Origin: an uncultured Syntrophomonadaceae bacterium
GTDB lineage: Bacteria > Bacillota > Dethiobacteria > DTU022
Assembly (NCBI GenBank): GCA_964485855.1
Contig: CAZAKI010000006.1
Span: 3,995-67,994 of the forward strand
Direction: 5' to 3'
DNA length: 64,000 nt
Shown here piece after piece: positions 2,412-19,029 of the stretch. The translations under genes were made by a program, and so were the position numbers. The first letter of the stretch is position 1. The number at the start of each line of letters is the position of its first letter. The notes beneath the pieces were generated by a model that made no database searches, was not told where the DNA came from, and worked only from the letters and a program-made list of their open reading frames with translations.

Positions 2412-3845
2412 TTGCGCTTTGAACCTTTGTCAGCAAAAGACCTGCAGCTAATCCATGATATGACCCTGAAAGTCTTAAAGGAAACCGGAACATTGGTTGA
2501 GGGTGAAGAGGCCAGAAATATCCTGCTTTCAGCCGGTTGCCAAGAAAAAAGCAAGCGGATTCTTTTCCCACCACAGCTGGTTGAGGATTGTCTTGCTTGT
2601 CGAGTCCCGGTGATTCTTTACGGGGTCGATGAAACCATTGTGATGCCGCTTACTGAAGCAACCCGATCCTATACCCATAATTTTGGCTCAGTTTCTGTTT
2701 TACTGGATCCTCAGGATAACCGGATCCGTGAAGCATTGCTCCAGGATCTAATCGATTTTATTAAGATTAGCGATTCCCTGACCTATCCGGACATGGTTGT
2801 GCCGAGTTTAAGGCCAACCGACCTGCCGGAAGAGATTGCCTCTTTGGCCATGACGGCATATGCTCTGCAGTATACCAGGAAACCGGTTGATATCGGCACA
2901 GCCTCTGACCGGTGGGAGATCGGCTATCTAATTCGGATTGCTGCAGCAGTCAGAGGGGGAATCCAGAATTTAGTGGAGAAGCCGATGGGAACCCTGTCCA
3001 TATCACCACTCAGTCCACTAAACTTCCCGGCTGATATATCGGAGGCTATAGTTGAAGGCGCTCGCTCCGGTTTGCCGGTAACCATGCTACCCTGCCCGAC
3101 CCGCGGTTTAACTGCCCCGATTACCCTAGCCGGAGGCCTGGTGCTGCAGAATGCTGAGCAACTGGCCTTTCTGACCCTGGCTCGCCTGGTCAACCGCACC
3201 ACCCCGCTGGTTTATACCTGTCGCCTGGCCGGTGCCAATATGCGCACCGGTTGTGTGAGCGGCCGGGATCCCGATATCGGTTTTTCCGGGGCCTGCGCCG
3301 CCCAACTGGCTCGTTCTTACGGGCTACCGTCGGGAGTATATGGCCTCGATACCGGCTCAGCCCAACCGGATCTGCAGTCGGGTTACGAACGGGCTATTAA
3401 TGGTCTTTTCCCGGTGTTAGCGGGCGCTACTTTTGTTTCCGGTATGGGTGCCCTGAATGCCGGTTTACTGGCTAGTGCCGAACAGTTGATAATTGACGAT
3501 GAGATCTACGCCATGATCAAACACCGTCAAAATGGGCTTGAGGTAAGCGCCGAGGCTATCGGGGCCGAGGTAATAGACGCAGTTATGTCCGGTGGGCATT
3601 TCCTGGCCCAGGAACACACCCGGGATTACATGCGCCGGGGTGAAATCTATGCCGGACAGCTTGGTAATGAAGCACCTTTCGAGGAATGGCGGGCATCCGG
3701 ATCAATAACGGTCCGGGAGCAGGCTGGTGAGAAGATCAAGCAGCTGCTTGCCGGGCATCCAGGTGTGCTGGTCGAAGAATCAGTATGCCTTGAAATAGAA
3801 GCAATTCTAGAAGAAGCCAGATCTGAAAAAGAGATTCAGGCCTAA
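2412..3845 (+). CDS. Trimethylamine-methyltransferase (MttB) superfamily protein, non-pyrrolysine
   Basis: 477 aa; SPL, AP.TLAG.LV..NAE, PD.QSGYE and EQLIIDDEI motifs; no in-frame TAG. Confidence 0.9.
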   Translation: MRFEPLSAKDLQLIHDMTLKVLKETGTLVEGEEARNILLSAGCQEKSKRILFPPQLVEDCLACRVPVILYGVDETIVMPLTEATRSYTHNFGSVSVLLDPQDNRIREALLQDLIDFIKISDSLTYPDMVVPSLRPTDLPEEIASLAMTAYALQYTRKPVDIGTASDRWEIGYLIRIAAAVRGGIQNLVEKPMGTLSISPLSPLNFPADISEAIVEGARSGLPVTMLPCPTRGLTAPITLAGGLVLQNAEQLAFLTLARLVNRTTPLVYTCRLAGANMRTGCVSGRDPDIGFSGACAAQLARSYGLPSGVYGLDTGSAQPDLQSGYERAINGLFPVLAGATFVSGMGALNAGLLASAEQLIIDDEIYAMIKHRQNGLEVSAEAIGAEVIDAVMSGGHFLAQEHTRDYMRRGEIYAGQLGNEAPFEEWRASGSITVREQAGEKIKQLLAGHPGVLVEESVCLEIEAILEEARSEKEIQA

Positions 3846-3922
3846 ACCGGGGAGGCGATAGCGCGAATAAGGGTTTGTCGAAAGGCAGTACAATTATACT
3901 TTGAGGAGGTCTTTAAAGCATA

Positions 3923-5551
3923 ATGAAACAATTCAAGTGGCTTCCATTGTTGTTAGTTGTTCTGTTGTTCTGCAGTGTAGCTCTTACCGGCTGTGCGGGA
4001 GGGACCCAGGAATCCCAACATGTTTTTAGAAGCGGATACATGCGTGAAATTGAAAGCCTGAACCCGATGGTTATCTGGTCAGTGCAGGCATATGAAGTGA
4101 TGTATCTGACCTACAACTTCCTGATTAGCTGGGATGAAGATTTGAATGTCATTCCCGAACTGGCCAGGGAGTGGGAAGTCGATGAGGATGGCACACTCTG
4201 GACTTTCTACCTGCAGGAAGGGGTTAAATGGCATGATGGGGAACCTTTTACTGCGGATGATGTTAAATTCACATATGAATATATACGCGATAATGAGCTC
4301 GGTTACTTCTATGATTATGTCGCGGCCATGGAAGAAATCGAGGTGCTTGATGACTACACCCTGACCGTTAAAACGGATGAGCCGATCGCCTGGATGCCCC
4401 AGGTCCTGGTACCGATTTTACCGGCTCATATCTGGTCGGAGATTGATCCCGAAGAGGCTGAGGGTGATTTTGCCAACGATAACCCGGTTGGCACCGGACC
4501 GTTTAAAGTGGTCGAACACCGCAAGGGCGAATATACGAGGATGGTTGCCAACGATGATTATTTCAAGGGTCGCCCGGCCCTTGATGAAGTGATCTTTATG
4601 ATCTATGCCAATACCGACGTAATGGTTGAAGCACTAAAGCAGGGGGAACTTGAAATTATTTCCGATGTACCCGGCGCCCAGTTTAAAGCGCTAGAGGATG
4701 CAGCTGATCCTAATATCCTGGCTCTTAATGCTGATTCTCCCTCTTTTACTGAGTTGGCTTTCAATGTCTGGGATGATCCTGGTTCGCTTGGGAATCCTCA
4801 CCTGCTTGATAAAAATGTGCGGGTGGCAATTGAGTATGCTCTCGATCGCCAGGAGCTGATCGATGTAGCCCTGATGGGTTACGGTGAAGTGGCATCAACC
4901 CTGGTACCGCCGCTATTTGAATACTGGCACCTGGATCTGGGTCCTGATTTCCGTAGCTATGATCCTGATCAGGCGGAGGCTATACTTGAGGAGGCCGGTT
5001 ACAGTCGCGGAGGTCATGGGCTTCGAGTTGGTCCTGACGGTGAGCTGATGTCTTATACCCTGTTGATCCGCTCTGAATCGCCTGATAACCAGAAGATGGC
5101 TACCATGATCAAGGATATGCTGTCAGCAGTCGGCATCGGGATAGAGGTTAGCGTGATCGATGAGGGAACCCTGACTGACCGCATTTATGAAGGCGACTTC
5201 GATATGTTTATCTGGGGTTGGTATGTCGATATTGATCCGACATCAATCCTGAAGGTTGCCACAACTGATGAAATCATGTCCTGGAGTGACTGCTTCTATT
5301 CGAACCCTGAATATGATGCCCTGCACCAGTTACAGCAGCGGACGATGGATCGGGAGGAGCGGCGGGACTTGATTTACGAGATGCAGCGGATTTTTTATGA
5401 TGATGCCGCCTACATCATGTTGTCATATGACCCCGAACTGCAGGCTTATCGCACCGATCGCTATACCGGCTGGGTACGTAACCCGCGGACTGGCCCGGTT
5501 ATGTATACCAACGTGATTGACAGCTATGAACAGCTGAAACCCATCGAATAA
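3923..5551 (+). CDS. ABC transporter substrate-binding lipoprotein, family 5 (OppA/DppA-like)
   Basis: Lipobox LTGC; WTFYLQEGVKWHDGEPFTADDVKFT signature; PVGTGPFK. Confidence 0.95.
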   Translation: MKQFKWLPLLLVVLLFCSVALTGCAGGTQESQHVFRSGYMREIESLNPMVIWSVQAYEVMYLTYNFLISWDEDLNVIPELAREWEVDEDGTLWTFYLQEGVKWHDGEPFTADDVKFTYEYIRDNELGYFYDYVAAMEEIEVLDDYTLTVKTDEPIAWMPQVLVPILPAHIWSEIDPEEAEGDFANDNPVGTGPFKVVEHRKGEYTRMVANDDYFKGRPALDEVIFMIYANTDVMVEALKQGELEIISDVPGAQFKALEDAADPNILALNADSPSFTELAFNVWDDPGSLGNPHLLDKNVRVAIEYALDRQELIDVALMGYGEVASTLVPPLFEYWHLDLGPDFRSYDPDQAEAILEEAGYSRGGHGLRVGPDGELMSYTLLIRSESPDNQKMATMIKDMLSAVGIGIEVSVIDEGTLTDRIYEGDFDMFIWGWYVDIDPTSILKVATTDEIMSWSDCFYSNPEYDALHQLQQRTMDREERRDLIYEMQRIFYDDAAYIMLSYDPELQAYRTDRYTGWVRNPRTGPVMYTNVIDSYEQLKPIE

Positions 5552-5586
5552 AGTGGGTTACTAGTTTTAAGTTTTAATGTCAGGAG

Positions 5587-5613
5587 GGGCCGGAGTACCT
5601 TTCCGGCCCTTTT
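5587..5613 (+). terminator. Stem-loop with T-tract between SBP and permease genes (partial terminator or mRNA stabiliser)
   Basis: GGGCCGGA-7nt-TCCGGCCC followed by TTTT. Confidence 0.7.
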
Positions 5614-5644
5614 CAAGGTGCGCCCGGCATGGGAGGAATGTCTG

Positions 5645-6616
5645 ATGAATATGCGCAATTACTTGGTTACAAAATTTATTCAGGCCTTAATCACCGTTTT
5701 TATCGTCATCGGGATGAACTTTTTCCTGTTCCGGATTATGCCAGGCGATCCGATCAGGGTTTTAATCCGCAATCCGAAAATCTCGGCCGACTCCCTGGCC
5801 CGGGTGCGCGAGCAATTCGGTTTGAACGAAGGCCGCCTCGTCCAGTTTTGGATCTATCTGCGTGATCTTTTTACCGGTGATTTTGGCTCTTCTTTTAATT
5901 ATCGGCAGCCGGTGCTCGATATAATCATGGAGCGTGTGCCGGCGACGGTACTGCTGGTTGGCACGGCGACTGTGCTTTCAATTATCATCGGGGTCCTGCT
6001 TGGGGTGATCCTCGCCTGGAAAAGAGGTACCCGCCTTGACGTCATCGGGCTCAGTGTTTCGTTAATTCTTTACTCGATGCCTACTTTTTGGGTGGCGATC
6101 ATCATGGTGATGATTTTTGCGGTCTACTGGCAGATATTTCCTCTAGGCGGGATGGGGCTGCCCGGAGTCTTTTATACTTCCTATTGGGCTGAACTGGCCT
6201 CCAAGGGACGGTATCTTTTTTTGCCGACGATCACCTTTGCCCTCATCCTGGTAGGGGAGTACGTGCTGATCATGCGCAGTTCTCTACTTGAAGTGATGCG
6301 CGAGGATTACATGCTTACAGCGCGGGCCAAGGGGGTCAGTAACCGTAACCTGTTACGACGGCATGCCCTGCCCAACGCTATGTTGCCTGTGGTGACATTG
6401 ATTGCCATCAACTTGGGTTTTATCGTTGGCGGTGCTATTCAGATTGAGACTGTTTTTTCCTGGCCCGGTCTGGGCCGGCTCATGTACACGGCACTGACCA
6501 ATCGTGATTATCCTGTTCTGCAGGGACTTTTCCTCTTTGTCACCATCGCTGTGGTTGGCGCCAACTTCTGCGCCGATATTCTCTACCGCTATCTCGATCC
6601 GCGGGTTAAATCATAA
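5645..6616 (+). CDS. Peptide/nickel ABC transporter permease (OppB/DppB-like)
   Basis: MPGDP, GDFGSSF, EDYMLTARAKG (EAA loop), ETVFSWPGLG, RDYPVLQG. Start ATG 5645 follows GGAGG. Confidence 0.95.
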   Translation: MNMRNYLVTKFIQALITVFIVIGMNFFLFRIMPGDPIRVLIRNPKISADSLARVREQFGLNEGRLVQFWIYLRDLFTGDFGSSFNYRQPVLDIIMERVPATVLLVGTATVLSIIIGVLLGVILAWKRGTRLDVIGLSVSLILYSMPTFWVAIIMVMIFAVYWQIFPLGGMGLPGVFYTSYWAELASKGRYLFLPTITFALILVGEYVLIMRSSLLEVMREDYMLTARAKGVSNRNLLRRHALPNAMLPVVTLIAINLGFIVGGAIQIETVFSWPGLGRLMYTALTNRDYPVLQGLFLFVTIAVVGANFCADILYRYLDPRVKS

Positions 6617-6622
6617 GGGGGC

Positions 6623-7525
6623 ATGCCAATGATCACCAGCGAACAGAAAAAAGATCTTTTCGCCCTCTGGAAAAAGAACCTTGTATCCTTCTGGGGGATC
6701 TACAGCCAGAATAAAATGGGTTTAATTGGACTTGTAATTTTAATAATCTTTACTTTGATGGCGCTTTTTGGTCCGCTGCTGGTGGAAATTACGACCATGG
6801 CTGTAGACGACGTAACCCAGGTGCTTCATCCGCCAACCGGCAATTTCTGGCTTGGCACCGACGATCTCGGCAAGGATATCTTCGCTGGTGTGATCATCGG
6901 CTCCAGAGTTTCCCTGCTGGTCGGGGTTGCTGCCACTGCGATTTCAATGATTATCGGCACCGTGATCGGTATTGTTTCCGGTTTCTACGGCAAGACGATC
7001 GATGCCCTGCTGATGCGGATCACTGATGTCTTCCTGGTTATCCCCTGGCTGCCTCTGATGCTGGTTATGGCTGCTCTGCTCGGCCCCAGCCTGGCTAATA
7101 TTATTTTTGTGATCGGCATTACCAGCTGGGCGGGCACAGCCAGGATTATTCGCTCACAAACTTTAAGTATCAAGGAAAGGCCTTACGTGGAAAGAGCCCG
7201 GGCGATTGGCAGTGGCGACACGCATATCATGTTCTATCACATTTTACCCAACGTATTTCCGCTGATCTTTGCCAATACCGTGCTGGTAGCGGCGATCGCG
7301 ATTCTCTCGGAGACGACACTGAGTTTTCTCGGGATGGGCGATCCGACGCGGGTTACCTGGGGGATGATGTTGCATTTCGCCTTTTCGATGGGGGCTGTAT
7401 CCTTCGGTGCCTGGTGGTGGCTGCTACCGCCTGGTATCTGCGTAGTACTGGTTGTTTTAAGTTTTACCTTCATCGGCTATGCCCTGGACGAAGTGCTCAA
7501 TCCGAAGCTGAGGAGGCGCGATTAG
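6623..7525 (+). CDS. Peptide/nickel ABC transporter permease (OppC/DppC-like)
   Basis: WLGTDDLGKD, RVSLLVG, YVERARAIG, HILPN, LSFLGMG, TWGMML. Confidence 0.95.
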   Translation: MPMITSEQKKDLFALWKKNLVSFWGIYSQNKMGLIGLVILIIFTLMALFGPLLVEITTMAVDDVTQVLHPPTGNFWLGTDDLGKDIFAGVIIGSRVSLLVGVAATAISMIIGTVIGIVSGFYGKTIDALLMRITDVFLVIPWLPLMLVMAALLGPSLANIIFVIGITSWAGTARIIRSQTLSIKERPYVERARAIGSGDTHIMFYHILPNVFPLIFANTVLVAAIAILSETTLSFLGMGDPTRVTWGMMLHFAFSMGAVSFGAWWWLLPPGICVVLVVLSFTFIGYALDEVLNPKLRRRD

Positions 7526-7527
7526 CG

Positions 7528-8493
7528 ATGCTGCTGGAAGTAGAAAACATGACCACTTATTACAAGCTCAAGGATGGTTTCGTACGCGCCTGTGAAAATA
7601 TCAGCTTATCTCTTGAGCAGGGCGAAGCGTTGGGTTTGGTCGGTGAATCAGCCTCGGGAAAAACTACGGCCGCCCTTTCACTGATAAAACTTTTACCCGA
7701 AAATGCAAAAGTGATGTCCGGTAAAATCAGTATTGCGGGGCGTGATATTTCCCAGGCAATGGAGGCTGAGCTTCGCCGCATTCGCTGGAAAGAGATTGCG
7801 ATCATCTTCCAGGGAGCGATGAACGCTTTGAATCCAGTGCGACGGGTCGGTGACCAGATTGTCGAGGTCCTGCGTATTCACGAGAAGATGACTGACAAAG
7901 CGGCTTTGCTCCGGACAATTGATCTATTTGAACAGGTAGAGATTGATCCATCACGGGTTAGGGATTATCCCCATGAATTCAGTGGAGGAATGCGCCAGCG
8001 CGTAATGATCGCCATGGCTATCGCCTGTAATCCGAAAGTAGTGATTGGTGATGAACCGACTACTGCGCTCGATGTGATGGTTCAAGCCCAGGTTTTACAG
8101 CTCCTTGAAAAGCTGCGCAGCAAACGCCGGATGGGGATGATTCTAATCACCCACGATCTTTCTGTCGTTGGTGAAACTTGCGACCGGGTGGCGGTTATGT
8201 ATGCTGGACAGATTGTCGAAAGCGGCCCCACTGAAAGAGTTTTTGAAAATCCGGCTCACCCCTATACCCGAGCTCTAATTGCCGCCTTTCCCAATATTGA
8301 GGGTGAGCGTTACCTGGCCCAGTCGATTCCAGGGAATCCCCCCAATCTGCTTAATCCCCCATCGGGTTGCCGTTTTCATGAACGATGCTCGGAATCCATG
8401 AAACTTTGCAGTTGTCAGGAACCCTTACCGGTCAAACTTGATTCAGGCCATTTTGCTTCCTGTCACCTCCTGGGAAGGAGGGTGTTATCGTGA
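7528..8493 (+). CDS. Oligopeptide ABC ATP-binding protein (OppD-like)
   Basis: Walker [35 protein letters not shown]-terminal GCRFHERC. Start ATG 7528 after GGAGG (ORF track's 7414 overlaps oppC). Confidence 0.95.
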
Positions 8494-9500
8494 GCAACCG
8501 GGATCAAGTTATCTCTAAGAACGAGCTGCTTAGGGTTGAGGGATTGGAGGTTCACTTTGCTGCCCGTACCGGTTTTCTTGCTGCCCTGCTCAGCAGGGAA
8601 AAAGCATTGGTCAGGGCGGTTGACGGAGTTGATTTTTCACTGGGTAAAGGCGAAATACTTTGCCTGGCCGGTGAATCAGGCAGCGGCAAAACTACTACTG
8701 GTAAAGCTGTCCTGCGCCTGATCGAACCGACAGGAGGGAAAATATGGTTTAAGGGCGAAGATTTGCTCAGTTTGACCAGGCAGAAGCTGCGTCTTTTCCG
8801 CCAGGATGCACAGATCATATTTCAAGATCCTTATGAGTCGCTAAATCCGCGGCAGACTGTTTTTGCCACTGTTGCCGAGCCGCTGGAAGTAAACCGGATT
8901 TGCAACAGTAACGCCGAGAAAGAAGAAAGGGTTATCGAGGCTCTCTGCGATGCGGGCTTGAACAACCCACGGGAGCTTTTCTTGCGTTACCCTCATGAAT
9001 TAAGTGGCGGGCAGCGCCAACGCCTGGCCATTGCCGGTGCTCTGGTCCTCAAGCCTGATTTTATTATGGCTGATGAACCGGTATCGATGCTGGATTTGTC
9101 AATCCGGGCAGGCATCCTGAAACTGATGGTTGATTTGCGTGATCTGAAAGGGATTAGCTATCTCTTTATCACCCACGATTTATCCCTGGCTTGGCTGGTT
9201 TCAGACCGGATAGCCGTTATGTATTTGGGAAAAATTGTGGAGCTCGGTTCCGCGGATGCAGTGATCCGTCAACCGCTTCATCCCTATACCCGGGCTCTTG
9301 TTTCAGTAATCCCGGTGCCGAAAAGTATTTCACGAAGGGATAAGAAGTTGCTCAAGGGAGAAACTCCGGATCCGGTAAATATCCCTGTCGGGTGTCGCTT
9401 CCATCCCCGGTGTCCGCAGGTAAAGCCGCGATGCCGTGAAGAAGAACCCTGCTTCAGGGAAATATTGCCCGGCCATTTTGGTGCCTGCCATTACCTTTAA
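8490..9500 (+). CDS. Oligopeptide ABC ATP-binding protein (OppF-like)
   Basis: GESGSGKTT, YPHELSGGQRQR, DEPVSMLD, GCRFHPRC. Confidence 0.95.
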   Translation: MSNRDQVISKNELLRVEGLEVHFAARTGFLAALLSREKALVRAVDGVDFSLGKGEILCLAGESGSGKTTTGKAVLRLIEPTGGKIWFKGEDLLSLTRQKLRLFRQDAQIIFQDPYESLNPRQTVFATVAEPLEVNRICNSNAEKEERVIEALCDAGLNNPRELFLRYPHELSGGQRQRLAIAGALVLKPDFIMADEPVSMLDLSIRAGILKLMVDLRDLKGISYLFITHDLSLAWLVSDRIAVMYLGKIVELGSADAVIRQPLHPYTRALVSVIPVPKSISRRDKKLLKGETPDPVNIPVGCRFHPRCPQVKPRCREEEPCFREILPGHFGACHYL

Positions 9501-9512
9501 GAAAGAGCATAA

Positions 9513-12500
9513 GTGCTGATGAACGAACTGTATTTACTTTCTGTTGATAACTGGCTGCAGAGCCTCGAGCTGGCGGCAGCTGTTTTAGCTGATCGGAAGA
9601 GGGACGCTTTCTTTTTGGATCCGGAAAGCGAAGAAGAGGAGCGAGAAGCGCTTCTCCTGCTGGCCAGCCGTTTGCCGCTTCGGGTTTTCAATTTAACCGA
9701 AAGTGTAAAAGTCGACCGGATTGCGGCTGCCGCAGAGGTGAAAATAGAGGCAGATCCTCTTTCCGGTCACCACACTATTGATGGTTGCGCGGCCTATTTT
9801 GGGAGACCGGCAGGGATCTGCTCTGCAGCTGCTAATGCACCGGCTGATTGCCTGAAGGCAGCAATGCTGGCGGTTCGCCTCGGTTACTATTTTGTAGCCT
9901 TGCCTGTTGAAAACCGGATCGAACTGCTTAACTACGAAGAAATACCCCTGGTTTGGTACGGGTTACTAGAGGCCTTAGCGCCAACAGGGATCAATCCTGA
10001 AAGGAAAAACTTAACTATTATTCAGGATGATTTCCGGCTGCTTCGATTTTTTGAATCTGCCGGCCTCTCCTCGGACTACCTGGTTGTCTATAATTCCGCG
10101 GATCTACTGTATAAAACCTTAAGAGGCGATGCTTTACGCGATCTTTGGGTTCGAGGTTTAAGTCTACATCTTTTATCGCTTGCTTCGTACCGCCCGGTCT
10201 TTCCCTTTGATGTCCAGAGTGAAAAGCCGGATCCGGTAATAATTGAGGACAATCTGCACCGGACAGTTCATCTGGTTGGCCTTAACCCTCGTTTTCAGGT
10301 AGTGCTGGCTTCTCCGGCGGTAGTGCCTTTTTTCTATGAAGAAAAAAAGGCGATTGGTGCTGTTACCGAGGAGATGGTCAGGGATATTCACCTGCGTCTG
10401 AATGCAGATGTTTTTTTTGATCTGGCAGAAGGGCGTTTGATGCAAAACAGCAGTGGAGGAATTTCAGCCCAACTAATCAGCACAAAAAGATATGATCAAA
10501 TCCAAAAGAATTTAAAGCGCGGGGGACGTGACGTTCTAATCGTTGCCACTCCACATGTTGAAACAGGGATTATATTTTCCACCGATGATGCGCTGATTGA
10601 TACACAGCTGGTGCCGCTGTTGGAAGACGCCGGTTTTGCTATCAACCAGCTCCGGGATCGTGACGCCGGTTACCGGCAAGTGGCTGCGGCGCTTAAAGAT
10701 GCCGACTACTTTCTCTACACCGGCCACGGAGGGCCGGAAGGATTGCATACTCACGGCAGGACGCTAAACAGAAGTGATTTACCACTGATGCCGCCCCTGG
10801 TGGCTTACGCTTCGGCTTGTTCCACGGTTGGCCTGGTTCCTCACTGGTTTTCACCTGACGAAGGGTTAACCTGGCAAGGAGTTAAGGTTGATTCGCGCCA
10901 GGTAATCGGGATTTCTTTTGTCGAAAAAGGGGCGATCTGTTTTATTGGCGGGGCCACAATCGAAGATTTACAGTACACAACTTCTACCTATAGCGTATTC
11001 ATGGAAGCTCTGTTGCTAAAGGGCTTAAGCGTAGGCGAAGCGGTCCGGGAGATGCGCCATGTGATCAGTCTTTATGCGGCAACCCTCCTGCAGAAAAATC
11101 CCGAGGCCTACCGCAAATATCGCTGGGGAACAGCCAATGCTATCCACCAGCAGGTTTTACTGGGTGACCCGGCTTTTGCTCCGGCTGTAAAGCAGTATTC
11201 TGATGCTGCCTTGCCTGTAATACTGGCCGGAGAAGCACCTTTGCAAACCCTTACCATTGAGATCCCCGAAGATCGTTGGCAGCGCGGGGCAGCTGCTGTC
11301 CACAAGCTGGAAGCTTCAAAGTACTATTACCGCTGTCGCAATGTTGAGGTTATTACTCCCTACGGTGAAGATATCTTCAGCTGGGGCGACTATTATCGAG
11401 TGGCACCTGATGCCCGTAATATTAGCGAGTGGGCCGTAAAGTCCACCTTTTTACACCTGACCCATCTTCTGCCGCCGGGAATGGTGCCGCAGAAGCTGAC
11501 TTTGATAGCTGTCGAGACCGGGAAGAGTGAATGTTTGCTCTGTGGGGAAGATGTTGACCAGTGCCAACCACCCCTTGAAGCGATGCAGAAATTTAAACTA
11601 CCTTACCTTCTGCAACCCCCTATCGAACTGAATATGAATGAAGGATGGGCTTTTTGCACAGAAGATCTGGGTGGCGCAGTTCGGATGCGCTGGCTGGTAC
11701 CGCTCTTATTAATCGACGATCAGAACCGCAGTGCCTTTCCCCTGAAAAAGTTTGTCTTTCAGATCGAATCTATCCCGGCTGTCAAGCTCAGCGGCAAGAT
11801 TACTAATGCAGAGCTTGCTTCTTCGTACTTGGTGTGTGCCGGGTATCAGGGTGAGAATAGAACTGAGCAAGATTTCCGGGGGCAGCCTTTTAACATGACT
11901 GCTGCTGTCCTCAGCGGTAGGGATGGCTCATTTTCCATCGACTGTGCTCCCGGTTCGGCGCTCACTGTTCGGGGGCAGTTCCCCTTATATCATCTGCTGG
12001 AGAACTATCAACCTTTTGCAACAACATTTTGCCGGCCTGCAGCGGAAAAACCTGTGACGATCGAGTTGAAGGCGTCGCAGCTGATTGACTTCAGGGGTTT
12101 TATCTATGATTCAATTAGTGGAGAGCCGCTGGCCGGTGTATTGATCAGGGTATTTCGTGGTGAACATGACCCGGTAGGGGATCTCCTCATTGAAGCATTT
12201 GCCGGGGAAGCGGTCACTGGCCAAAAAGGCGATTTTATGATCAAGCTGCCGGCAGGCGGCTACCTGGTTTATGCCGCGGCTGCATCCGAAAACAGGTATT
12301 ACAAGTCAGCCGAATGGGTCTTGAAACTGCGTGATGGAGAGAAAGGCAATCGGATTTATGCTCTTGATCAGGCCGGGATCGTTAAGGGCAGGGTCACCTT
12401 CGTCGGGTACCAACCTCCGGATCCGCCACTGGTTGCCCTAAAAAGGTATCCAAAAATAGAAGGTGCAGCTCCTCTGACCAAGGTTCCCGTTGATCGCAAC

Positions 12501-12665
12501 GGTAGTTACCAGTGTTTGGTCAGTTACCAGGATCGCTTCCAAATTGTTCTGGAAGAGGAAGGGTATAAATATATTTATGATGATAATGACGGAAAGGGAT
12601 ACAGGCTGGAACCGCAGCAGATTCTTGAACGCGATTACTGTCTGTTATCGGATGAAGATAGTTAA
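9513..12665 (+). CDS. Large clan-CD cysteine peptidase (C25 gingipain-like) with C-terminal carboxypeptidase-regulatory-like beta domains
   Basis: YTGHGG (His405) and YASACSTVG (Cys436) dyad; later 'GAICFIGG' and 'LLGDPA' motifs; C-terminal 'GFIYDSISGEPLAGVLIRV' repeat type; no signal peptide. Confidence 0.7.
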   Translation: MLMNELYLLSVDNWLQSLELAAAVLADRKRDAFFLDPESEEEEREALLLLASRLPLRVFNLTESVKVDRIAAAAEVKIEADPLSGHHTIDGCAAYFGRPAGICSAAANAPADCLKAAMLAVRLGYYFVALPVENRIELLNYEEIPLVWYGLLEALAPTGINPERKNLTIIQDDFRLLRFFESAGLSSDYLVVYNSADLLYKTLRGDALRDLWVRGLSLHLLSLASYRPVFPFDVQSEKPDPVIIEDNLHRTVHLVGLNPRFQVVLASPAVVPFFYEEKKAIGAVTEEMVRDIHLRLNADVFFDLAEGRLMQNSSGGISAQLISTKRYDQIQKNLKRGGRDVLIVATPHVETGIIFSTDDALIDTQLVPLLEDAGFAINQLRDRDAGYRQVAAALKDADYFLYTGHGGPEGLHTHGRTLNRSDLPLMPPLVAYASACSTVGLVPHWFSPDEGLTWQGVKVDSRQVIGISFVEKGAICFIGGATIEDLQYTTSTYSVFMEALLLKGLSVGEAVREMRHVISLYAATLLQKNPEAYRKYRWGTANAIHQQVLLGDPAFAPAVKQYSDAALPVILAGEAPLQTLTIEIPEDRWQRGAAAVHKLEASKYYYRCRNVEVITPYGEDIFSWGDYYRVAPDARNISEWAVKSTFLHLTHLLPPGMVPQKLTLIAVETGKSECLLCGEDVDQCQPPLEAMQKFKLPYLLQPPIELNMNEGWAFCTEDLGGAVRMRWLVPLLLIDDQNRSAFPLKKFVFQIESIPAVKLSGKITNAELASSYLVCAGYQGENRTEQDFRGQPFNMTAAVLSGRDGSFSIDCAPGSALTVRGQFPLYHLLENYQPFATTFCRPAAEKPVTIELKASQLIDFRGFIYDSISGEPLAGVLIRVFRGEHDPVGDLLIEAFAGEAVTGQKGDFMIKLPAGGYLVYAAAASENRYYKSAEWVLKLRDGEKGNRIYALDQAGIVKGRVTFVGYQPPDPPLVALKRYPKIEGAAPLTKVPVDRNGSYQCLVSYQDRFQIVLEEEGYKYIYDDNDGKGYRLEPQQILERDYCLLSDEDS

Positions 12666-12685
12666 GAGCTGACAGGGGTAATAAT

Positions 12686-13720
12686 ATGCACGAGATTCTG
12701 ATGATCAAAGCAAAGGGCAGCAACTATGATATCGGCTATAAAGTTGGCAGGGCTGCAAGCAGCTTGATCGAAAGATCGATTAGAAGTTACCGGCAGATCC
12801 TTCCCCGGGAAGAAGGATGGAGCGGAAAGTGGGTGGTTCCGGAAGGATGTCTGGAGGCGGCTCGAGAGAAGTTTCCACACCTGCTTGAAGAACTGCAGGG
12901 AATGGCGGAGGGCTCCGGCCAAAGTTTTAGTGATCTATTTTTTCTTAACTCCTTGGAAGAAGTACTCGATCTAAAATCCCCGACAGCCTGCACCTCTCTT
13001 GGTTTGGAAGCTAACGGTGAAGTTTGGCTAGGGCACAATGAGGATTGGTATGCTGAAGATGCCGATACAGTGATCGCTATTTATGGTCAGCCAAATAATC
13101 TACCGTCTTTCATCAGTATAACTGCTGCTCCTTTTCTTGCTGCAGTGGGCATGAATGAGGCCGGTCTGGCCCAGGGAGTAAACTCGGTTACTGCAACTGA
13201 CTATCAAGTGGGAGTGCCACGGATGCTTGCTGCGCGAGCAGTTCTGGAAGCTACGACGATCAGAGAGGCAATTGATAAGGCTACCCCACACAACAGGGCG
13301 GGTGGTTACAATCACCTGCTGGTGAGTACCAAGAAAGAACTTGGCAACTTAGAAACTACAGCTACCGAGTCTGATTATTTGCCGGGTGCAAAGCTAATTT
13401 ACCATACCAATCATTATCTTAGTCCGCGCTTGCAGCGCCTGGCAAAAATGGGATCAAATCATTCTCTGACTCGTTACAGGAGATTGACCGAGCTGGAACG
13501 AATAGATCAGAGAGTTACCAATCGGGTAACCTGCAGGGAAAGGCTGATTAGTTATTTAAGCGATCATGGAAACAGGCCATTATCAATCTGCAAGCACGCT
13601 TGTGAACAAATGGGTAACGAGGGGACTATTTTTTCTGCTATTTTTGAGCCTGGTTCTTTTAATGCATGGATTGCTGTCGGTAATCCCTGTGATAACAAAT
13701 ACAAAGAATTAAAAATATAA
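12686..13720 (+). CDS. Peptidase C45 family autoproteolytic Ntn hydrolase/acyltransferase
   Basis: A|CTS cleavage site (Cys102), GHNEDW, GMNEAGLAQGVNS, HTNHYL. Confidence 0.9.
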   Translation: MHEILMIKAKGSNYDIGYKVGRAASSLIERSIRSYRQILPREEGWSGKWVVPEGCLEAAREKFPHLLEELQGMAEGSGQSFSDLFFLNSLEEVLDLKSPTACTSLGLEANGEVWLGHNEDWYAEDADTVIAIYGQPNNLPSFISITAAPFLAAVGMNEAGLAQGVNSVTATDYQVGVPRMLAARAVLEATTIREAIDKATPHNRAGGYNHLLVSTKKELGNLETTATESDYLPGAKLIYHTNHYLSPRLQRLAKMGSNHSLTRYRRLTELERIDQRVTNRVTCRERLISYLSDHGNRPLSICKHACEQMGNEGTIFSAIFEPGSFNAWIAVGNPCDNKYKELKI

Positions 13721-13738
13721 AGAGTTGGTGATGAAATC

Positions 13739-14902
13739 ATGACAGATTACAGTGTTGTTCACCAAAAAGTCGAAGCGGAAAAAGATAAGCTGGTGGAAAT
13801 TGCCCGCGCAATCCATGGCAGGCCGGAACTTGGAGGTCAGGAATTTTTTGCTGTAGAGCAGATTACTGCTTATCTCGAGGGACAGGGTTTTAAAATCTGG
13901 CGAGGAGTGGGCGGCTTGAAAACAGCATTCATGGCCAGCTATGGTGAAACCGGTTACCATGTCGGATTCTGTTCCGAGTATGATGCTTTACCTGAGATCG
14001 GCCATGGCTGCGGTCATAACCTGATCGGTCTAGCCGGGGTAACTGCCGGGGTGGCGCTGGCTGCTGCCTTACATGATCAGCCCGGTCGGGTCTCGATTAT
14101 TGGTACTCCTGACGAAGAAGATCATGGCGGTAAAGTCGATCTGGTCAGAGCTGGTGTATTCGATGATATCGATGCGGCAATGATGTTTCACCCCGGTTGT
14201 TCGACCAGTTTTCTGATCGAATCGCTGGCCTGCCGGGATTACCGTTTTATTTTTCACGGCCGTAGCGCCCATGCTTCCAGCGAGCCCTGGGAAGGACAGA
14301 ACGCCCTTGATGCCGTAATTCAGACTTTTAATAGCATTAATGCCTTGCGCCAGCATTTGAAAGACGACGTCCGCATTCACGGCATTGTCTCCGAAGGCGG
14401 CCTGGCAGCCAATGTTGTACCGGATCGGGCAGCGGCAGACTTTATCATCAGATCGCGCGACAGTCTTTATCTTGGTGAAGTAATTGAGAAAGTGGTTGCC
14501 TGTGCCCGCGGGGCGGCAATTGCGACCGGTACCAATCTTGAAGTTACTGAATCCGGTTATCCTTATGATGCGATGATCAGTAACCATACACTGGCTGATC
14601 TTTTTGCTGAGAGTTTAGGGCAAACCGGCTATGCCATTGAATCACCGCACGAGGAAGGGCGGGGCTCAATTGATATGGGTAATGTCAGTAGAGTCACCCC
14701 ATCAATTCACCCGATTGTAGCAATTACTAACCAGTGGGTTACAGGTCATACCCGGGAGTTTACTGCACTCTGTGATTCCGATCAAGCTTATGAAGTGATG
14801 CTCCAGGTAGGAGAAGCCATGGCACTGACCGGTCTTAAAGTGATCAAGGATCAGACCCTGCAGCTTAAGATCAGAACTGAATTTGAACAGCAATCAGTCT
14901 AG
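13739..14902 (+). CDS. M20 family amidohydrolase (M20D/ACY1L2-like)
   Basis: PELGGQE, EYDALPEIGHGCGHN, GTPDEE, HGRSAHAS, GSIDMGNVS, HP. Confidence 0.92.
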   Translation: MTDYSVVHQKVEAEKDKLVEIARAIHGRPELGGQEFFAVEQITAYLEGQGFKIWRGVGGLKTAFMASYGETGYHVGFCSEYDALPEIGHGCGHNLIGLAGVTAGVALAAALHDQPGRVSIIGTPDEEDHGGKVDLVRAGVFDDIDAAMMFHPGCSTSFLIESLACRDYRFIFHGRSAHASSEPWEGQNALDAVIQTFNSINALRQHLKDDVRIHGIVSEGGLAANVVPDRAAADFIIRSRDSLYLGEVIEKVVACARGAAIATGTNLEVTESGYPYDAMISNHTLADLFAESLGQTGYAIESPHEEGRGSIDMGNVSRVTPSIHPIVAITNQWVTGHTREFTALCDSDQAYEVMLQVGEAMALTGLKVIKDQTLQLKIRTEFEQQSV

Positions 14903-14919
14903 ACACCAGCTAATCAGCT

Positions 14920-14946
14920 ACACTGTGTATCAAGTTATCAAGTTAT
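14920..14946. repeat. 27-bp element, copy 1 (exact inverted copy at 18781-18807)
   Basis: ACACTGTGTATCAAGTTATCAAGTTAT; contains tandem TATCAAGT units. Confidence 0.9.
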
Positions 14947-14969
14947 AGGTAATTGGAGGAGGTGAGCAG

Positions 14970-15953
14970 ATGCCGGAAACTGTTGTAGAAAAAATTCGTG
15001 ATGATTTATTTCGAGCCGAGATCCCCCTGCCCCGCAACCCCCTGAAGGCAACCAATTCCTATATTATTAAAAGTAATAAGCGCAACCTGGTGATTGACAC
15101 TGGGATGAACAGGGATGAATGTAAAAATGCCCTGATCGATGCATTTCGTCAGCTTGAGATTGATCTTGAACGAACTGATTTTTTTATCACCCACCTTCAT
15201 GCCGATCATGTCGGCCTGGTGGATGTATTTGCTGCCAGGGATGCGGTAATCTATTTTAATGAACCCGATGCTGCAATTCTTAACCGGTCTGATCTCTGGC
15301 AACTGGTTCAATCACTGGCCGGAAAACACGGGTTTCCGGAAAGCCTGGTTAACGCGGCAATTGATTCTCACCCTGGCCAGCGCTACAGCCCGAAAAGTTC
15401 GGTTGAGTTCACGCTAGTCAAAGATGGTGACAGCCTGTTATATGGAGATTATGAGCTGCAATTGGTTGCTACGCCCGGCCATACAAGCGGTCATACCTGT
15501 TTGTATGAACCTTGCCAGAAAATACTTTTTTCCGGTGACCATATCCTTGGTGATATCACCCCCAATATTTCTACCTGGCTTGAAGCCGGTAATCCCTTGC
15601 AGGAATATTTTATCAGCCTTGACCGAATTTATGAAATGGACATAAGCTTGGTGCTTCCGGGCCACCGCAGCATTATTCACAACTGTAGGCAAAGAATAGA
15701 TCAGTTGAAGGAACATCATTGTAAAAGGCTGGAAGAAGTATTGCAGATACTTGGACGGATCGGCGAAGGTTCTGCTTTTGAAGTGGCATCCAGGATGACC
15801 TGGGATATTATTGCTGCAAGCTGGGATGATTTTCCTCTAATGCAAAAATGGTTTGCCACCGGAGAGGCTCTGGCTCATATTCACTATTTGGAACAGCAGA
15901 ACAAGCTAAAACGGAACAAGGCTGGCGAAACACTGCTATTTTCTCTCGCTTAA
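14970..15953 (+). CDS. MBL-fold metallo-hydrolase with C-terminal winged-helix-like extension
   Basis: THLHADH, PGHTSGH, FSGDHIL, LPGH motifs. Confidence 0.92.
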   Translation: MPETVVEKIRDDLFRAEIPLPRNPLKATNSYIIKSNKRNLVIDTGMNRDECKNALIDAFRQLEIDLERTDFFITHLHADHVGLVDVFAARDAVIYFNEPDAAILNRSDLWQLVQSLAGKHGFPESLVNAAIDSHPGQRYSPKSSVEFTLVKDGDSLLYGDYELQLVATPGHTSGHTCLYEPCQKILFSGDHILGDITPNISTWLEAGNPLQEYFISLDRIYEMDISLVLPGHRSIIHNCRQRIDQLKEHHCKRLEEVLQILGRIGEGSAFEVASRMTWDIIAASWDDFPLMQKWFATGEALAHIHYLEQQNKLKRNKAGETLLFSLA

Positions 15954-15990
15954 TATAAAGCATAGCGATTTGTTATCCAAAGAGGAGGTT

Positions 15991-17493
15991 ATGAAAATCG
16001 GCCGCTATATACTTTCAATTGACCAAGGCACAACCGGTACCACCGCTATTCTTTGGAATCAGGATGGTATCGCTGTAGCCCGAATCAACCGGGAACATAA
16101 ACAATTTTACCCTCAGCCAGGTTGGGTAGAGCACGATGCCGAAGAAATTTGGAGAAATGTTCTGCTCTCGGCTTCAGAAGTACTGGTTCAGGCCGGAACC
16201 GGGGCCGGTGATGTTGCGGCAATCGGGATAACCAACCAGCGGGAGACAGTTGTTTTCTGGGACCGGAATACTGGTTTTCCTTTGACTCGAGCCATTGTTT
16301 GGCAATGCCGACGCACTGCTGATTTATGTCGTCAACTAAAGGGTGATGGTTTTGAAGAGCAGGTGCGGCAGAAAACAGGCTTGCTGCTTGATCCTTATTT
16401 TTCCGGGTCGAAAATTCGTTGGGCCCTGGAAAATGTTAGCGCAGTAAGCAAGGCGGCAGCTGACGGCACACTCTGCTGTGGGACGATTGATAGCTATTTG
16501 CTTTTTCGCCTGACCGGAGGACAAGTTTTTGCTACCGATTACAGCAATGCTTCCCGGACCCTGCTTTTTAATATTCATAATCTTAAGTGGGATCAGGATT
16601 TGCTAAATCTTTTTAGTGTTCCACAGGCAGCCTTACCCCGGGTGATGGCTAACAGCACAATCTATGGCAATACAGTTCCGGAACTCTTTTCCGGCATAAA
16701 AATTCCGATTGGCGGCATTGCCGGTGATCAACAGGCAGCGCTCTTCGGACAGGCCTGTTACGAGCCTGGGATGACTAAAAACACTTACGGTACTGGTTGC
16801 TTTCTGCTAATGAATACCGGTGAAAATGTGGTTATCTCGAAACATGGTTTGCTGACCACTATCGCCTGGGGCCTTGGTGATAAAGTTGAATATGCGCTCG
16901 AAGGCAGCATTTTTATTACCGGTGCCGCTGTCCAATGGTTGCGCGATGGCTTAGGTCTGATCAGCCAGGCAGCTGAGCTGGAAGGATTGGCTGCTCAAGT
17001 TGAAGATAGCGGTGGCGTTTACCTGGTACCGGCTTTTGCCGGGCTTGGCGCCCCGCATTGGGATCCCTATGCCCGTGGTTTAATCATCGGGATTACTGGT
17101 GGTACAACCAGGGCCCATATCGGCAGGTCAGTTATTGAGGCCATGGCCTATCAGACCCGTGATGTTCTTGAGATCATGCACCGTGATGCTAAACTACCGG
17201 TTAAAGAGCTACGAGTTGACGGTGGAGCCAGTGTTATGGATCTGCTGCTACAATTCCAGGCGGATATAACCTCGACACCGGTACGCCGTTCGGCAACCTT
17301 TGATACGACGGCCCTCGGAGCTGCTTACCTGGCCGGTCTGGCTTGTGGGCTTTGGAAAGACAAAGAGGAATTAAGTGAAAAATGGCGGGGTAGTGCCTAT
17401 TTCGAACCGCAAATGAGCCAGGAAAAACGGCAGGAACTTTATGCAGGCTGGAGCTCTGCAGTCAAACGTTCCTTAGGCTGGGCTGAAAAATGA
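15991..17493 (+). CDS. glpK: Glycerol kinase
   Basis: IDQGTTGT, GITNQRET, DPYFSGSK, GDQQAALFGQ, KNTYGTGCF, VDGGAS. Start ATG 15991 after GGAGG. Confidence 0.95.
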   Translation: MKIGRYILSIDQGTTGTTAILWNQDGIAVARINREHKQFYPQPGWVEHDAEEIWRNVLLSASEVLVQAGTGAGDVAAIGITNQRETVVFWDRNTGFPLTRAIVWQCRRTADLCRQLKGDGFEEQVRQKTGLLLDPYFSGSKIRWALENVSAVSKAAADGTLCCGTIDSYLLFRLTGGQVFATDYSNASRTLLFNIHNLKWDQDLLNLFSVPQAALPRVMANSTIYGNTVPELFSGIKIPIGGIAGDQQAALFGQACYEPGMTKNTYGTGCFLLMNTGENVVISKHGLLTTIAWGLGDKVEYALEGSIFITGAAVQWLRDGLGLISQAAELEGLAAQVEDSGGVYLVPAFAGLGAPHWDPYARGLIIGITGGTTRAHIGRSVIEAMAYQTRDVLEIMHRDAKLPVKELRVDGGASVMDLLLQFQADITSTPVRRSATFDTTALGAAYLAGLACGLWKDKEELSEKWRGSAYFEPQMSQEKRQELYAGWSSAVKRSLGWAEK

Positions 17494-17498
17494 TAACC

Positions 17499-18134
17499 TT
17501 ATGTTTCCGGGGTAGTCTTAGTTTTCGGCATCAACTGGGTCCCAGCTTCGCCACAACTGCCCGGTGAAAAAAGTCCTCCGGAGATGATCACTTTCATTCC
17601 TTCTTCCACGGTCATTTTAAGTTCGATCACCTCATGCCTTGGAGCTAAAACCAGCATTCCGGATGTTGGATTTGGAGTGGTCGGTACAAAAATATTTAAA
17701 GTTTCTTCTGCGGTTTTTTCCTGGATTTCACCCCGGGACTGCCCGGTAACGAAACCGATTACATAAAGACCATGGCGTGGGTATTCTAAAAGCACTACTT
17801 TTTGAAAAGCATTTTTACCCTGTACCGTGAAAGCATCGATGATTTGCTTTGCGCTTGTATAGATGCTTCGTGATATCGGAACGCGTTGAAATAGGCGGTC
17901 AAAAAAACCAATCAGCCGGTTGCCGATGATATTCGTTGCAATGAAACCAATGAGCATGATCAGGAGCAATCCGGCAACAAAGCCAATTCCTGGTAGGCGG
18001 TAATTAAAGATTGTCTCGATCAAGTCACCAACCAGGTTGTCCAGGAAATTAAAAATAACGTAAAAGAAATAAACAGTTACAGCCAGTGGTAAAATCGTTA
18101 ACAAACCGGTAGTAAAGATCGTTTTTAGTCTCAT
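17499..18134 (-). CDS. DUF502 domain membrane protein
   Basis: F.TGLL.ILPL, Q.VVLLEYPR.G, VPTTPNPTSG, GMK.IISGG. Confidence 0.92.
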   Translation of the reverse strand: MRLKTIFTTGLLTILPLAVTVYFFYVIFNFLDNLVGDLIETIFNYRLPGIGFVAGLLLIMLIGFIATNIIGNRLIGFFDRLFQRVPISRSIYTSAKQIIDAFTVQGKNAFQKVVLLEYPRHGLYVIGFVTGQSRGEIQEKTAEETLNIFVPTTPNPTSGMLVLAPRHEVIELKMTVEEGMKVIISGGLFSPGSCGEAGTQLMPKTKTTPET

Positions 18135-18230
18135 TGATCAACATTCTCCTTCAGCATCAATTTGCTGCAATCAATTAATTTTACCAGCAGGTAATGTGCT
18201 GTCAACCGAGCACAGGTGGAGGTGGTTTTT

Positions 18231-18761
18231 ATGGGCAAGAATCTAAACAGAATCGGCATTATTCTCAGTCCTGTCTTGCTAATTTTGTTCCTAATAATAG
18301 CGGTGACTCTTGAAGGTTGCGGTTTAGACCTGGATTCGGAATCAGGTCTTCCCACCTATCCAGTGTTTATTAAGCAAAAAGAATTTCAACTGGAGCTGGC
18401 TTTAACTCCCGAGCATCGTGCCACCGGGTTGATGGGCAGGACAGAAATTGCTGCAAATGAAGGGATGCTTTTTGTTTTTCCGGGACAGGAGCCTTATCCT
18501 ACTGAACTAAATTTCTGGATGAAAGATTGCTTAGTGCCGATTGATCTTCTGTTTCTCGATCCGGCAGGAAAGATTATAGCAATCCATAAGATGAAACCGC
18601 AACCGCCGGATACCCCTGATCGGGAGCTGATTAGTTATTCGAGCAATGCTCCGGCCCAGTATGCGATTGAACTGCAAGGTGGCCGTGCTGCGGAACTCGG
18701 CTTACAGACAGGCGATGTGATTGAGCTAAATTTTACGGAACTATTGTCCCTGGCAGAGTAG
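18231..18761 (+). CDS. DUF192 domain protein (exported, possible lipoprotein)
   Basis: ELALTPE.RATGLM.R, GMLFVF, FWMKD..PIDLLF, YAIEL.GG. Start ATG 18231 after GGAGG. Confidence 0.9.
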   Translation: MGKNLNRIGIILSPVLLILFLIIAVTLEGCGLDLDSESGLPTYPVFIKQKEFQLELALTPEHRATGLMGRTEIAANEGMLFVFPGQEPYPTELNFWMKDCLVPIDLLFLDPAGKIIAIHKMKPQPPDTPDRELISYSSNAPAQYAIELQGGRAAELGLQTGDVIELNFTELLSLAE

Positions 18762-18780
18762 GGTCTAGCGGGCGAAGAGA

Positions 18781-18807
18781 ATAACTTGATAACTTGATAC
18801 ACAGTGT
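18781..18807. repeat. 27-bp element, copy 2 (reverse complement of 14920-14946)
   Basis: ATAACTTGATAACTTGATACACAGTGT, 24 nt beyond the tRNA-Gln 3' end. Confidence 0.9.
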
Positions 18808-18830
18808 TGGTTTAAAAGGAGGCATAAAAA

Positions 18831-18905
18831 TGGCTGGGGCGGTAGGATTCGAACCTACGCATGCGGGATCCAAAGTCCCGTGCCTTACCGCTTGGCCACA
18901 CCCCA
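18831..18905 (-). tRNA. tRNA-Gln (TTG)
   Basis: Minus strand TGGGGTG...GGGAC-TTTGGAT-CCCG...GGTTCGAATCC...CCA; cloverleaf with encoded CCA. Confidence 0.97.
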
Positions 18906-18951
18906 GCATTGACAAAGTATTTTAACTGAAATTAAATTAATAGTTTAAAGA

Positions 18952-19029
18952 TGGGGTGAGTGATGGGGTTCGAACCCACGGCCTCCAGGGCCACAACCTG
19001 GCGCTCTAACCAGCTGAGCTACACCCACC
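18952..19029 (-). tRNA. tRNA-His (GTG), with encoded G-1 and CCA
   Basis: Minus strand GGTGGGTG TA GCTC...CCAGG-TTGTGGC-CCTGG...GGTTCGAAC...CACTCACC CCA. Confidence 0.97.

Follow-up and report, generated by a model that had tools for sequence, protein, structure and literature searches.

The C25-like protein and its domain architecture

The window considered here is a 64,000-nucleotide stretch of contig CAZAKI010000006.1 (assembly GCA_964485855.1, positions 3,995 to 67,994) from an uncultured Syntrophomonadaceae bacterium, and the gene in question encodes a protein similar to peptidase family C25, the gingipain family, which is referred to as C25-like (C25L). The gene occupies 9513..12665 on the + strand as an uninterrupted open reading frame (ORF) of 1050 aa with a GTG start, and belongs to a run of genes from 1732 to 17493 that are all on the + strand and separated by gaps of at most 77 bp. 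Upstream extension of the ORF is ruled out by an in-frame stop before 9513, the first start after that stop, and by the preceding gene, which ends at 9500. The true start is probably the ATG at 9519 (codon 3), since a purine-rich stretch (AAGAAAGAG) precedes this ATG and the database orthologues (1048 aa) begin there; C25L would then comprise 1048 aa, and the residue numbers used here would shift by -2.

The N-terminal alpha/beta region (aa 1-185; 9513..10067) lies outside the C25 domain, has no signal peptide and forms Rossmann-like beta-alpha repeats in the predicted structure. It is followed by the gingipain-type, clan CD C25 catalytic domain (aa ~187-556; 10071..11180), which contains the GHG motif (aa 404-406) with His405 (codon 10725..10727), the SAC motif (aa 434-436) with Cys436 (codon 10818..10820), and LLGDPA (aa 549-554; 11157..11174), the terminal GDP motif of the domain, matching the GDP of undisputed C25 proteins in alignments. 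The first-pass annotation of this DNA had pointed out these three motifs and the distance of 31 residues between His405 and Cys436, and all were found where it placed them. Downstream of the catalytic domain, a beta-sandwich region (aa 561-855; 11193..12077) carries invariant YY (605-606) and WGD (624-626) residues and a CxxC motif, CLLC (aa 674-677; 11532..11543), whose two cysteines (Cys674 and Cys677) are invariant even when tandem paralogues are included. The C-terminus is made up of two prealbumin/CarboxypepD_reg-like beta-sandwich domains (aa 856-944 and 945-1050; 12078..12662).

C25L matches the Pfam family PF01364 (Peptidase_C25) with 28.6 bits, above the gathering score of 23 (E 1.1e-6), and the match places residues 298-555 on profile positions 119-372 of 374. 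Its only other Pfam match, to the separase family C50, is sub-threshold, and no NCBIfam model matches. A total of 60 full-length homologues with 40-81% identity were collected, nearly all from Bacillota, Syntrophomonadaceae or Dethiobacteria metagenome-assembled genomes. Many of them carry a precomputed Pfam C25 hit, and the NCBI annotation of several orthologues already reads 'C25 family cysteine peptidase'; the assignment to C25 is therefore not novel in itself. When 1.84 billion representative proteins were scanned exhaustively with phmmer, 45 hits were obtained at E<=1e-3, with ~13 full-length clusters, and exact occurrences of the window sequence were detected in seawater, sediment and marine-sediment metagenomes.

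Conservation was assessed in an alignment of 42 of the 60 homologues, which covers the same range of 40-81% identity. Conservation within C25L is highest in the segment 266-560, where 54 positions are invariant. G404, H405, G406, A435 and C436 are all invariant, and the dyad is also present in the tandem paralogues. The dyad sites read YFLYT-GHG and LVAYA-SAC, with His preceding Cys and each following a hydrophobic beta-strand. The family profile aligns His405/Cys436 with YHG/NAC in P0093, HHG/YTC in P0097 and GHG/KAC in P0095, whose Pfam C25 scores are 106, 146 and 41 bits, respectively; the profile also brings an upstream DD-F-D-GR motif and the terminal GDP motif into line with those of strong Pfam C25 members. 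In gingipains, P1 specificity is set by an acidic residue of the S1 pocket, Asp163 in RgpB and Asp516 in Kgp. C25L has an invariant acidic residue, D358, in addition to E350 and E471, near the expected S1 positions as judged by sequence position.

An AlphaFold2 model of the full-length protein, built with the homologue alignment, has a predicted local distance difference test score (pLDDT) of 90.0 and a predicted TM score of 0.92. Its top Foldseek matches are pilin/CnaB-type sandwiches that align with the C-terminal half, and RgpB and Kgp are already present in the list. Since the C-terminal sandwiches dominated this search, a second AlphaFold model was made of residues 1-570 (pLDDT 87.9), for which the five best Foldseek matches in the PDB are gingipains (1cvr, 4rbm, 6i9a, and chains D and B of 4ief), with E-values of 2e-7 to 3e-6, probability 1.00, TM scores of 0.49-0.55 (target-normalised) and 407-436 aligned columns. 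These are followed by the anti-sigma factor DdvA, separases, SAVED-CHAT, Craspase CHAT and caspases. Thus, the N-terminal half is closest to RgpB/Kgp and then to other clan CD enzymes, which agrees with the gingipain-like fold that had been proposed from the sequence. In the model, His405 comes directly after strand 399-402 and Cys436 directly after strand 430-433, which is the clan CD arrangement; this strand topology, together with the Foldseek matches, suggests that the two residues are adjacent in space.

With regard to the N-terminal region, profile matches to other C25 proteins and the Pfam match in the homologue P0064, which covers C25 profile positions 44-372, start at about residues 188-234, and the conserved strand DYLVVYNSADL (187-198) probably opens the C25 domain. 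Because these matches begin at ~188-234 and the Foldseek gingipain alignment takes up ~410-435 columns of the first 570 residues, the additional N-terminal sequence is limited to ~185 residues. The first-pass annotation, which described about 400 aa of unrecognised N-terminal sequence, therefore overstated its extent. Residues ~91-207 bear a weak resemblance to the CWB2 region found in secreted C25 proteins (domain E 1.7e-4 and 9.2e-4 in a seven-sequence search), CWB2 was not detected in C25L by Pfam, and this resemblance hints at descent from a wall-associated protease. On the other hand, the description of the C-terminal part as carboxypeptidase-regulatory/prealbumin-like beta domains agrees with the model, in which residues 561-1050 are all beta and form several sandwiches, including CarboxypepD_reg-like domains, and with the precomputed Pfam CarboxypepD_reg matches of several homologues and the CnaB-type Foldseek matches.

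The gingipains RgpB and Kgp of Porphyromonas gingivalis (MEROPS C25, clan CD; PDB 1CVR, 4RBM, 6I9A and 4IEF) share with C25L the order of His before Cys, each directly after a hydrophobic strand, and a domain that ends in a GDP motif and is followed by a beta-sandwich domain. The His-Cys spacing is 31 residues in C25L and ~33 in RgpB. In contrast to the gingipains, C25L lacks a signal peptide, a prodomain and a type IX secretion system (T9SS) C-terminal domain, has ~185 extra N-terminal alpha/beta residues and ~490 C-terminal beta residues, and comes from a Bacillota anaerobe rather than from Bacteroidota. Whereas gingipains are secreted virulence factors, the gene for C25L forms part of an importer/methyltransferase operon.

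Outside the C25L family, the nearest relatives recognisable by sequence are secreted multidomain Pfam C25 proteins that also contain CWB2 and glycosyl-hydrolase-like domains (P0093, P0097 and P0091; 24-26% identity). Their profile alignments span the whole C25L catalytic domain, with His, Cys, DD-F-D-GR and GDP in register. Unlike C25L, P0093 and P0097 (1468-1526 aa) possess hydrophobic signal-like N-termini and other accessory domains, while P0091 (684 aa) begins inside the protein and looks truncated. In addition, a sister group (P0077 and P0094, 984-989 aa) resembles C25L in architecture, in the His (GNHG) and Cys (FSC) sites, in the CarboxypepD_reg-like C-terminal domains and in the absence of a signal peptide, but is only 20-24% identical and its C25 domain is not recognised by Pfam. 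Sister-group genes (L032 10001-12970 and L028 262-3216) are located near Ser/Thr kinases and an S-layer homology (SLH) protein, with neither an MttB gene nor an Opp-type importer.

Several observations bear on the cellular location. No signal peptide or hydrophobic segment was found in the 42 homologues, the highest 19-residue Kyte-Doolittle mean being <1.8, and no signal peptide, Tat motif, lipobox or transmembrane helix was found in these homologues or in the sister group; the distant full-length members likewise have no signal peptide, lipobox or transmembrane helix. Neither a T9SS tail (Por_Secre_tail) nor any further Pfam/NCBIfam domain was detected in C25L at E<=10. Residues 4-10 form a structured core beta-strand with high pLDDT. 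A clear lipoprotein signal (MKQFKWLPLLLVVLLFCSVALTGC) is present in the neighbouring family-5 binding protein, and signal peptides were absent from the C45, M20, metallo-beta-lactamase (MBL) and M14 partner hydrolases. A cytoplasmic location is the straightforward reading of these predictions, and the absence of a signal peptide noted for the window protein extends to all 42 homologues.

The operon and its conservation

The cluster begins with a gene for a corrinoid (B12-binding) protein (1732..2394; PF02310 and PF02607; TIGR02370 214 bits against a cut-off of 215.3), followed by an MttB-family methyltransferase gene (2412..3845; PF06253, 222.7 bits) that is an uninterrupted ORF with no in-frame amber codon. 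Next come the components of an Opp/App-type ATP-binding cassette (ABC) importer: a family-5 solute-binding lipoprotein with the lipobox LTGC (3923..5551), two Opp/Dpp-type permease genes (5618..7525) and two genes for Opp/Dpp-type ABC ATPases that have oligo_HPY as their C-terminal region (7414..9500). The best solved relative of the binding protein is the oligopeptide-binding protein AppA, and it is also similar to DppA-type proteins. The first ATPase ORF (7414..8493) shares 112 bp with the permease gene before it and exceeds its orthologues (324-325 aa) by ~35 aa; its start is probably further downstream. A gap of 12 bp separates the ATPase genes from the downstream C25L gene, which is followed by genes for a C45-family N-terminal nucleophile (Ntn; autoproteolytic) acyltransferase/hydrolase (12686..13720) and an M20-family amidohydrolase of the TIGR01891 type (13739..14902), both without a signal peptide. 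All of these genes are on the + strand. No riboswitch was found upstream of the cluster with Rfam. A promoter/terminator scan gave counts no different from those in shuffled sequence.

Two accessory genes on the same strand close the run, an MBL-fold hydrolase gene (14970..15953) and a gene for the glycerol kinase GlpK (15970..17493; 738 bits to GlpK). The gap of 16 bp between them suggests co-transcription, and a glycerol-containing side product is conceivable. Both genes are syntenic in closer relatives only, at a C25L identity of ~50% or more, and are absent from divergent loci with the gene order of the window and from all loci with the second gene order described below; a glycerophosphocholine-type substrate, an idea that arose from their presence, was set aside as a core explanation for this reason.

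An Opp/App-type importer, C25L and MttB occur together in 17 of the 17 loci with enough flanking sequence, over C25L identities from 81% down to 34%; in this count, the Opp-type importer was scored wherever upstream DNA was present. The invariant link to MttB, which is the most informative feature of the gene, had not been noticed in the first-pass annotation. The gene order of the window (type A) recurs in ~20 genomes. A second order (type B), Opp - C25L - MttB - cytoplasmic M14 carboxypeptidase (~780-800 aa), was found in three places, namely Candidatus Formimonas warabiya DCMF (L024, CP017634.1 2398320-2421436), L030 and L036, and the C25L of one of these contigs is only 34% identical. In the Formimonas cluster, an MtgA-like S-methyltransferase gene (S-methyl_trans) follows and a gene for an Amidohydro_2 protein precedes; no other cluster has an MtgA-like gene. 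The MttB proteins of the two gene orders are 35% identical to each other, compared with 55-74% within a type, so the linkage of C25L to MttB either persisted or arose twice across MttB subfamilies. The C45, M20, M14, MBL and GlpK genes vary among loci, and one locus contains just the corrinoid protein, MttB, the Opp-type importer and C25L; thus, C25L is the one hydrolase that is always present. For the distant homologues P0064, P0066 and P0077, the contigs did not extend far enough for analysis of gene context.

Some genomes carry a tandem second C25-like gene (L001 13377-16403; also L018, L020, L021, L022 and L035), whose product is ~42-46% identical to the window protein, and both genes of a pair keep GHG, SAC and CLLC. 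In L001, a distant type A locus, an arginase-family ureohydrolase gene (771-1724) and an extra MttB gene (1-664) are immediately upstream of the corrinoid gene, an arrangement that may hint at guanidino-type substrates.

The MttB superfamily includes quaternary-amine demethylation systems from anaerobic Firmicutes, such as MtgB, MtpB, MtcB, MtyB and MthB, each of which, like the window, combines a non-pyrrolysine MttB homologue with a B12-binding corrinoid protein (PMC13080624, PMC12155760). These systems act on free small betaines or phosphocholine, whereas the partners of MttB in the window are a peptide-type importer and a C25 protease. To our knowledge, the transporters of the known systems are of the BCCT/Opu type, not of the Opp type. 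In the literature searched, no link of MttB systems to a C25 protease, an Opp-type peptide importer or peptidases was found, nor any pairing of MttB with trimethyllysine. Non-pyrrolysine MttB homologues are reported to number in the thousands, and for the majority no substrate is known (PMC13080624).

The best solved relatives of the window MttB are the pyrrolysine-containing trimethylamine methyltransferase (179 bits) and MtgB (170 bits). Y97 and F356 of MtgB engage in cation-pi contacts, the carboxylate of the substrate is bound by R312 and H348, and R312 is conserved in all characterised non-pyrrolysine members (PMC13080624). In the window MttB, Y97 is replaced by Phe, R312 by Gly308, H348 by Gly344 and F356 by Gly351, and the pyrrolysine position is occupied by Asp313. 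The MttBs of type B loci have Asn, Gly and Gly/Ala at the positions of R312, H348 and F356, so that the Arg conserved in characterised members is Gly or Asn in the C25L-linked proteins. The loss of the Arg, His and Phe residues that bind glycine betaine in MtgB implies a different substrate. The linked MttBs very probably do not act on glycine betaine or other known acidic betaines, and the window MttB likely has a new substrate specificity.

Possible function and alternative explanations

Taken together, the Pfam match, the fold, the invariant dyad and the gene context are best explained if C25L is a catalytically competent, cytoplasmic, gingipain-type member of peptidase family C25 in clan CD that cuts an imported peptide-like substrate, whereby a methylated amine would reach the MttB/corrinoid system. 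We consider this explanation as a whole to be probable, with considerable room for doubt. It is in line with the first-pass annotation, which had envisaged a repurposed intracellular C25-fold hydrolase in a catabolic operon: Pfam, the fold and the absence of an export signal support the intracellular hydrolase, of which the activity is predicted, and the position next to the importer ATPase genes, along with further hydrolases that lack signal peptides, is consistent with an imported substrate.

Briefly, and in a presumed order, the family-5 lipoprotein would bind a peptide-like compound, which the Opp/App-type ABC transporter would import. In the cytoplasm, C25L would cleave an amide bond by means of the His405/Cys436 dyad, and its products could be trimmed by accessory hydrolases, i.e., the C45 Ntn hydrolase and the M20 amidohydrolase/carboxypeptidase in loci of the window type and the cytoplasmic M14 carboxypeptidase in the other type. 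The methylated amine so released would be passed to the adjacent MttB, which would methylate the co-encoded corrinoid protein, as the invariant gene linkage suggests. Four to five beta-sandwich domains and the additional alpha/beta region at the N-terminus would probably limit entry to the active site or serve in oligomerisation, making a gingipain-type protease tolerable in the cytoplasm.

A more specific proposal draws on analogy with gingipains, which recognise Lys or Arg at P1. C25L might recognise a methylated cationic residue, such as N-epsilon-trimethyllysine, methylarginine or an N-terminal betaine, and, together with a carboxypeptidase, free this residue, which a new MttB subfamily without the betaine-carboxylate Arg would then demethylate; we regard this version as speculative and assign it a low probability. 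P. gingivalis pairs gingipain with the M14 carboxypeptidase CPG70, both extracellular and Lys/Arg-specific. This pairing resembles the type B arrangement of C25L, MttB and M14 (or M20 in the window), where the carboxypeptidase could remove a newly exposed C-terminal residue. In contrast to the gingipain/CPG70 pair, however, the enzymes of the C25L loci are all devoid of signal peptides, and the residue proposed to be released is a methylated amine.

Several points weigh against the proposed route from importer through C25L to MttB. The Pfam C25 score of C25L is modestly over threshold, and searches of the PDB with the single C25L sequence and with the 42-sequence profile hit no gingipain chain, so that the similarity is remote. 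These searches returned chance immunoglobulin matches and weak beta-sandwich matches and no protease; therefore, the residue-level link between C25L and gingipains rests on Pfam, Foldseek and the intermediate C25 proteins. Ligands of family-5 binding proteins also include nickel, opines, haem and sugars, which makes a peptide ligand a candidate only. Neither a methyl-corrinoid:tetrahydrofolate methyltransferase of the MtgA type nor a RamA-type activase was found among the annotated genes at 222..21522. A search for RNA sequencing runs returned none. Moreover, the main text and two supplementary files of the Formimonas metaproteome paper do not contain the terms 'C25' or 'gingipain', and 'peptidase' and 'oligopeptide' are also missing from the main text.

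Among the alternatives, C25L could be a general intracellular oligopeptidase for amino-acid nutrition, with the MttB/corrinoid genes as an independent methylotrophy module that is adjacent by chance. The generic Opp/App/Dpp type of the importer and the presence of M20, M14 and C45 enzymes, which are common peptide or amide hydrolases, would fit such a role. Chance adjacency is difficult to reconcile with the linkage of MttB in all 17 informative loci, at 34-81% identity and in two gene orders, one of which places MttB directly between the C25L and M14 genes, and the 45 hits among 1.84 billion representatives amount to a rarity unlike that of a housekeeping oligopeptidase; this explanation is therefore considered unlikely. 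It is distinctly less probable that C25L is an extracellular or wall-associated protease which leaves the cell by non-classical export and digests proteins outside to feed the importer. The nearest C25 relatives outside the family, P0093 and P0097, do have hydrophobic signal-like N-termini (P0097 also a CWB2 cell-wall-binding domain), the stretch at ~91-207 weakly matches the CWB2 region, and beta-sandwich tails are typical of surface proteins. Against this stand the lack of an export signal throughout the 42 homologues and the sister group, the involvement of residues 4-10 in a core strand, the weak and Pfam-negative nature of the CWB2 resemblance, and the embedding of the gene among cytoplasmic hydrolases.

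A Cys-acyl intermediate could also transfer a peptide or acyl group, in which case C25L would be a transpeptidase, ligase or transamidase. Such transfer is performed by PorU (C25) and the C13 enzymes GPI8 and butelase, which have the same fold and dyad, and the multidomain architecture could hold an acceptor. The surroundings of the gene are catabolic, though, comprising an importer, partners of the exopeptidase type and a demethylase; genes for biosynthesis or secretion are absent, and no acceptor-related partner is conserved; we give this idea marginally less credence than export. The least probable alternative, to which very little weight is attached, is a regulatory or defence clan CD protease of the CHAT or separase kind whose target would be one specific protein of the cell, or else a scaffold without catalytic activity. 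Foldseek also matches separase, SAVED-CHAT and Craspase CHAT domains, but gingipains are the best matches, the partners are of transport and catabolism with no nucleotide-sensor, CRISPR or toxin genes, and an invariant dyad speaks against a dead scaffold. Separately, a defence role for C25L was rejected after PADLOC gave no match.

What is new about C25L is its apparent cytoplasmic location, its architecture and, above all, its conserved coupling to an importer and MttB. All characterised C25 proteases that we know of are secreted or cell-surface enzymes from Bacteroidota, and no paper describing a cytoplasmic C25 enzyme was found in the literature searched. A conserved cytoplasmic branch with an intact active site would widen the known use of the fold and raises the question of how a gingipain-type protease stays harmless within the cell. 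The linkage suggests an undescribed anaerobic route for methyl groups on peptide-like compounds, and two MttB subfamilies tied to a peptide importer and a protease, both without the betaine-binding residues, provide a testable lead to a new substrate class. Should the more specific proposal of methylated residues be true, it would represent the first pathway of anaerobic methylotrophy on protein- or peptide-bound methyl groups and the first intracellular, catabolic role of a gingipain-family protease. Candidatus Formimonas warabiya DCMF is kept in enrichment culture, which makes experiments feasible, and the marine, seawater and sediment metagenomes represent settings where methylated amines are thought to fuel methylotrophy.

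Other features of the window

Upstream of the cluster, a 269-aa PP-loop ATPase-like protein with an SGGVDS motif and a weak NAD_synthase match is encoded at 222..1031; it is kept upstream of the cluster in many related loci with 42-50% identity. A 103-aa ORF at 1049..1360 (-), in the 700-bp gap upstream of the corrinoid gene, has a lipoprotein-like signal (LAFLGCS) and, after it, a tract very rich in Glu, and may or may not be a real gene. On the other side of the cluster, two tRNA genes were identified with Rfam at 18834..19028 (-), and a gene for an M24 creatinase/prolidase-like peptidase adjoins those for a thiolase and a fused 3-hydroxyacyl-CoA dehydrogenase/enoyl-CoA hydratase at 22537..27484 (-).

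A housekeeping tig-clpP-clpX-lon cluster is located at 28393..34304, so the window is chromosomal. Finally, the region 37536..48525 encodes a sigma-54 activator (CBS-PAS-AAA), a class-III aminotransferase, an aldehyde:ferredoxin oxidoreductase, a NuoF-like flavoprotein and a 1142-aa GltD-like/molybdopterin-oxidoreductase fusion, and looks like a separate amine or aldehyde catabolic module.

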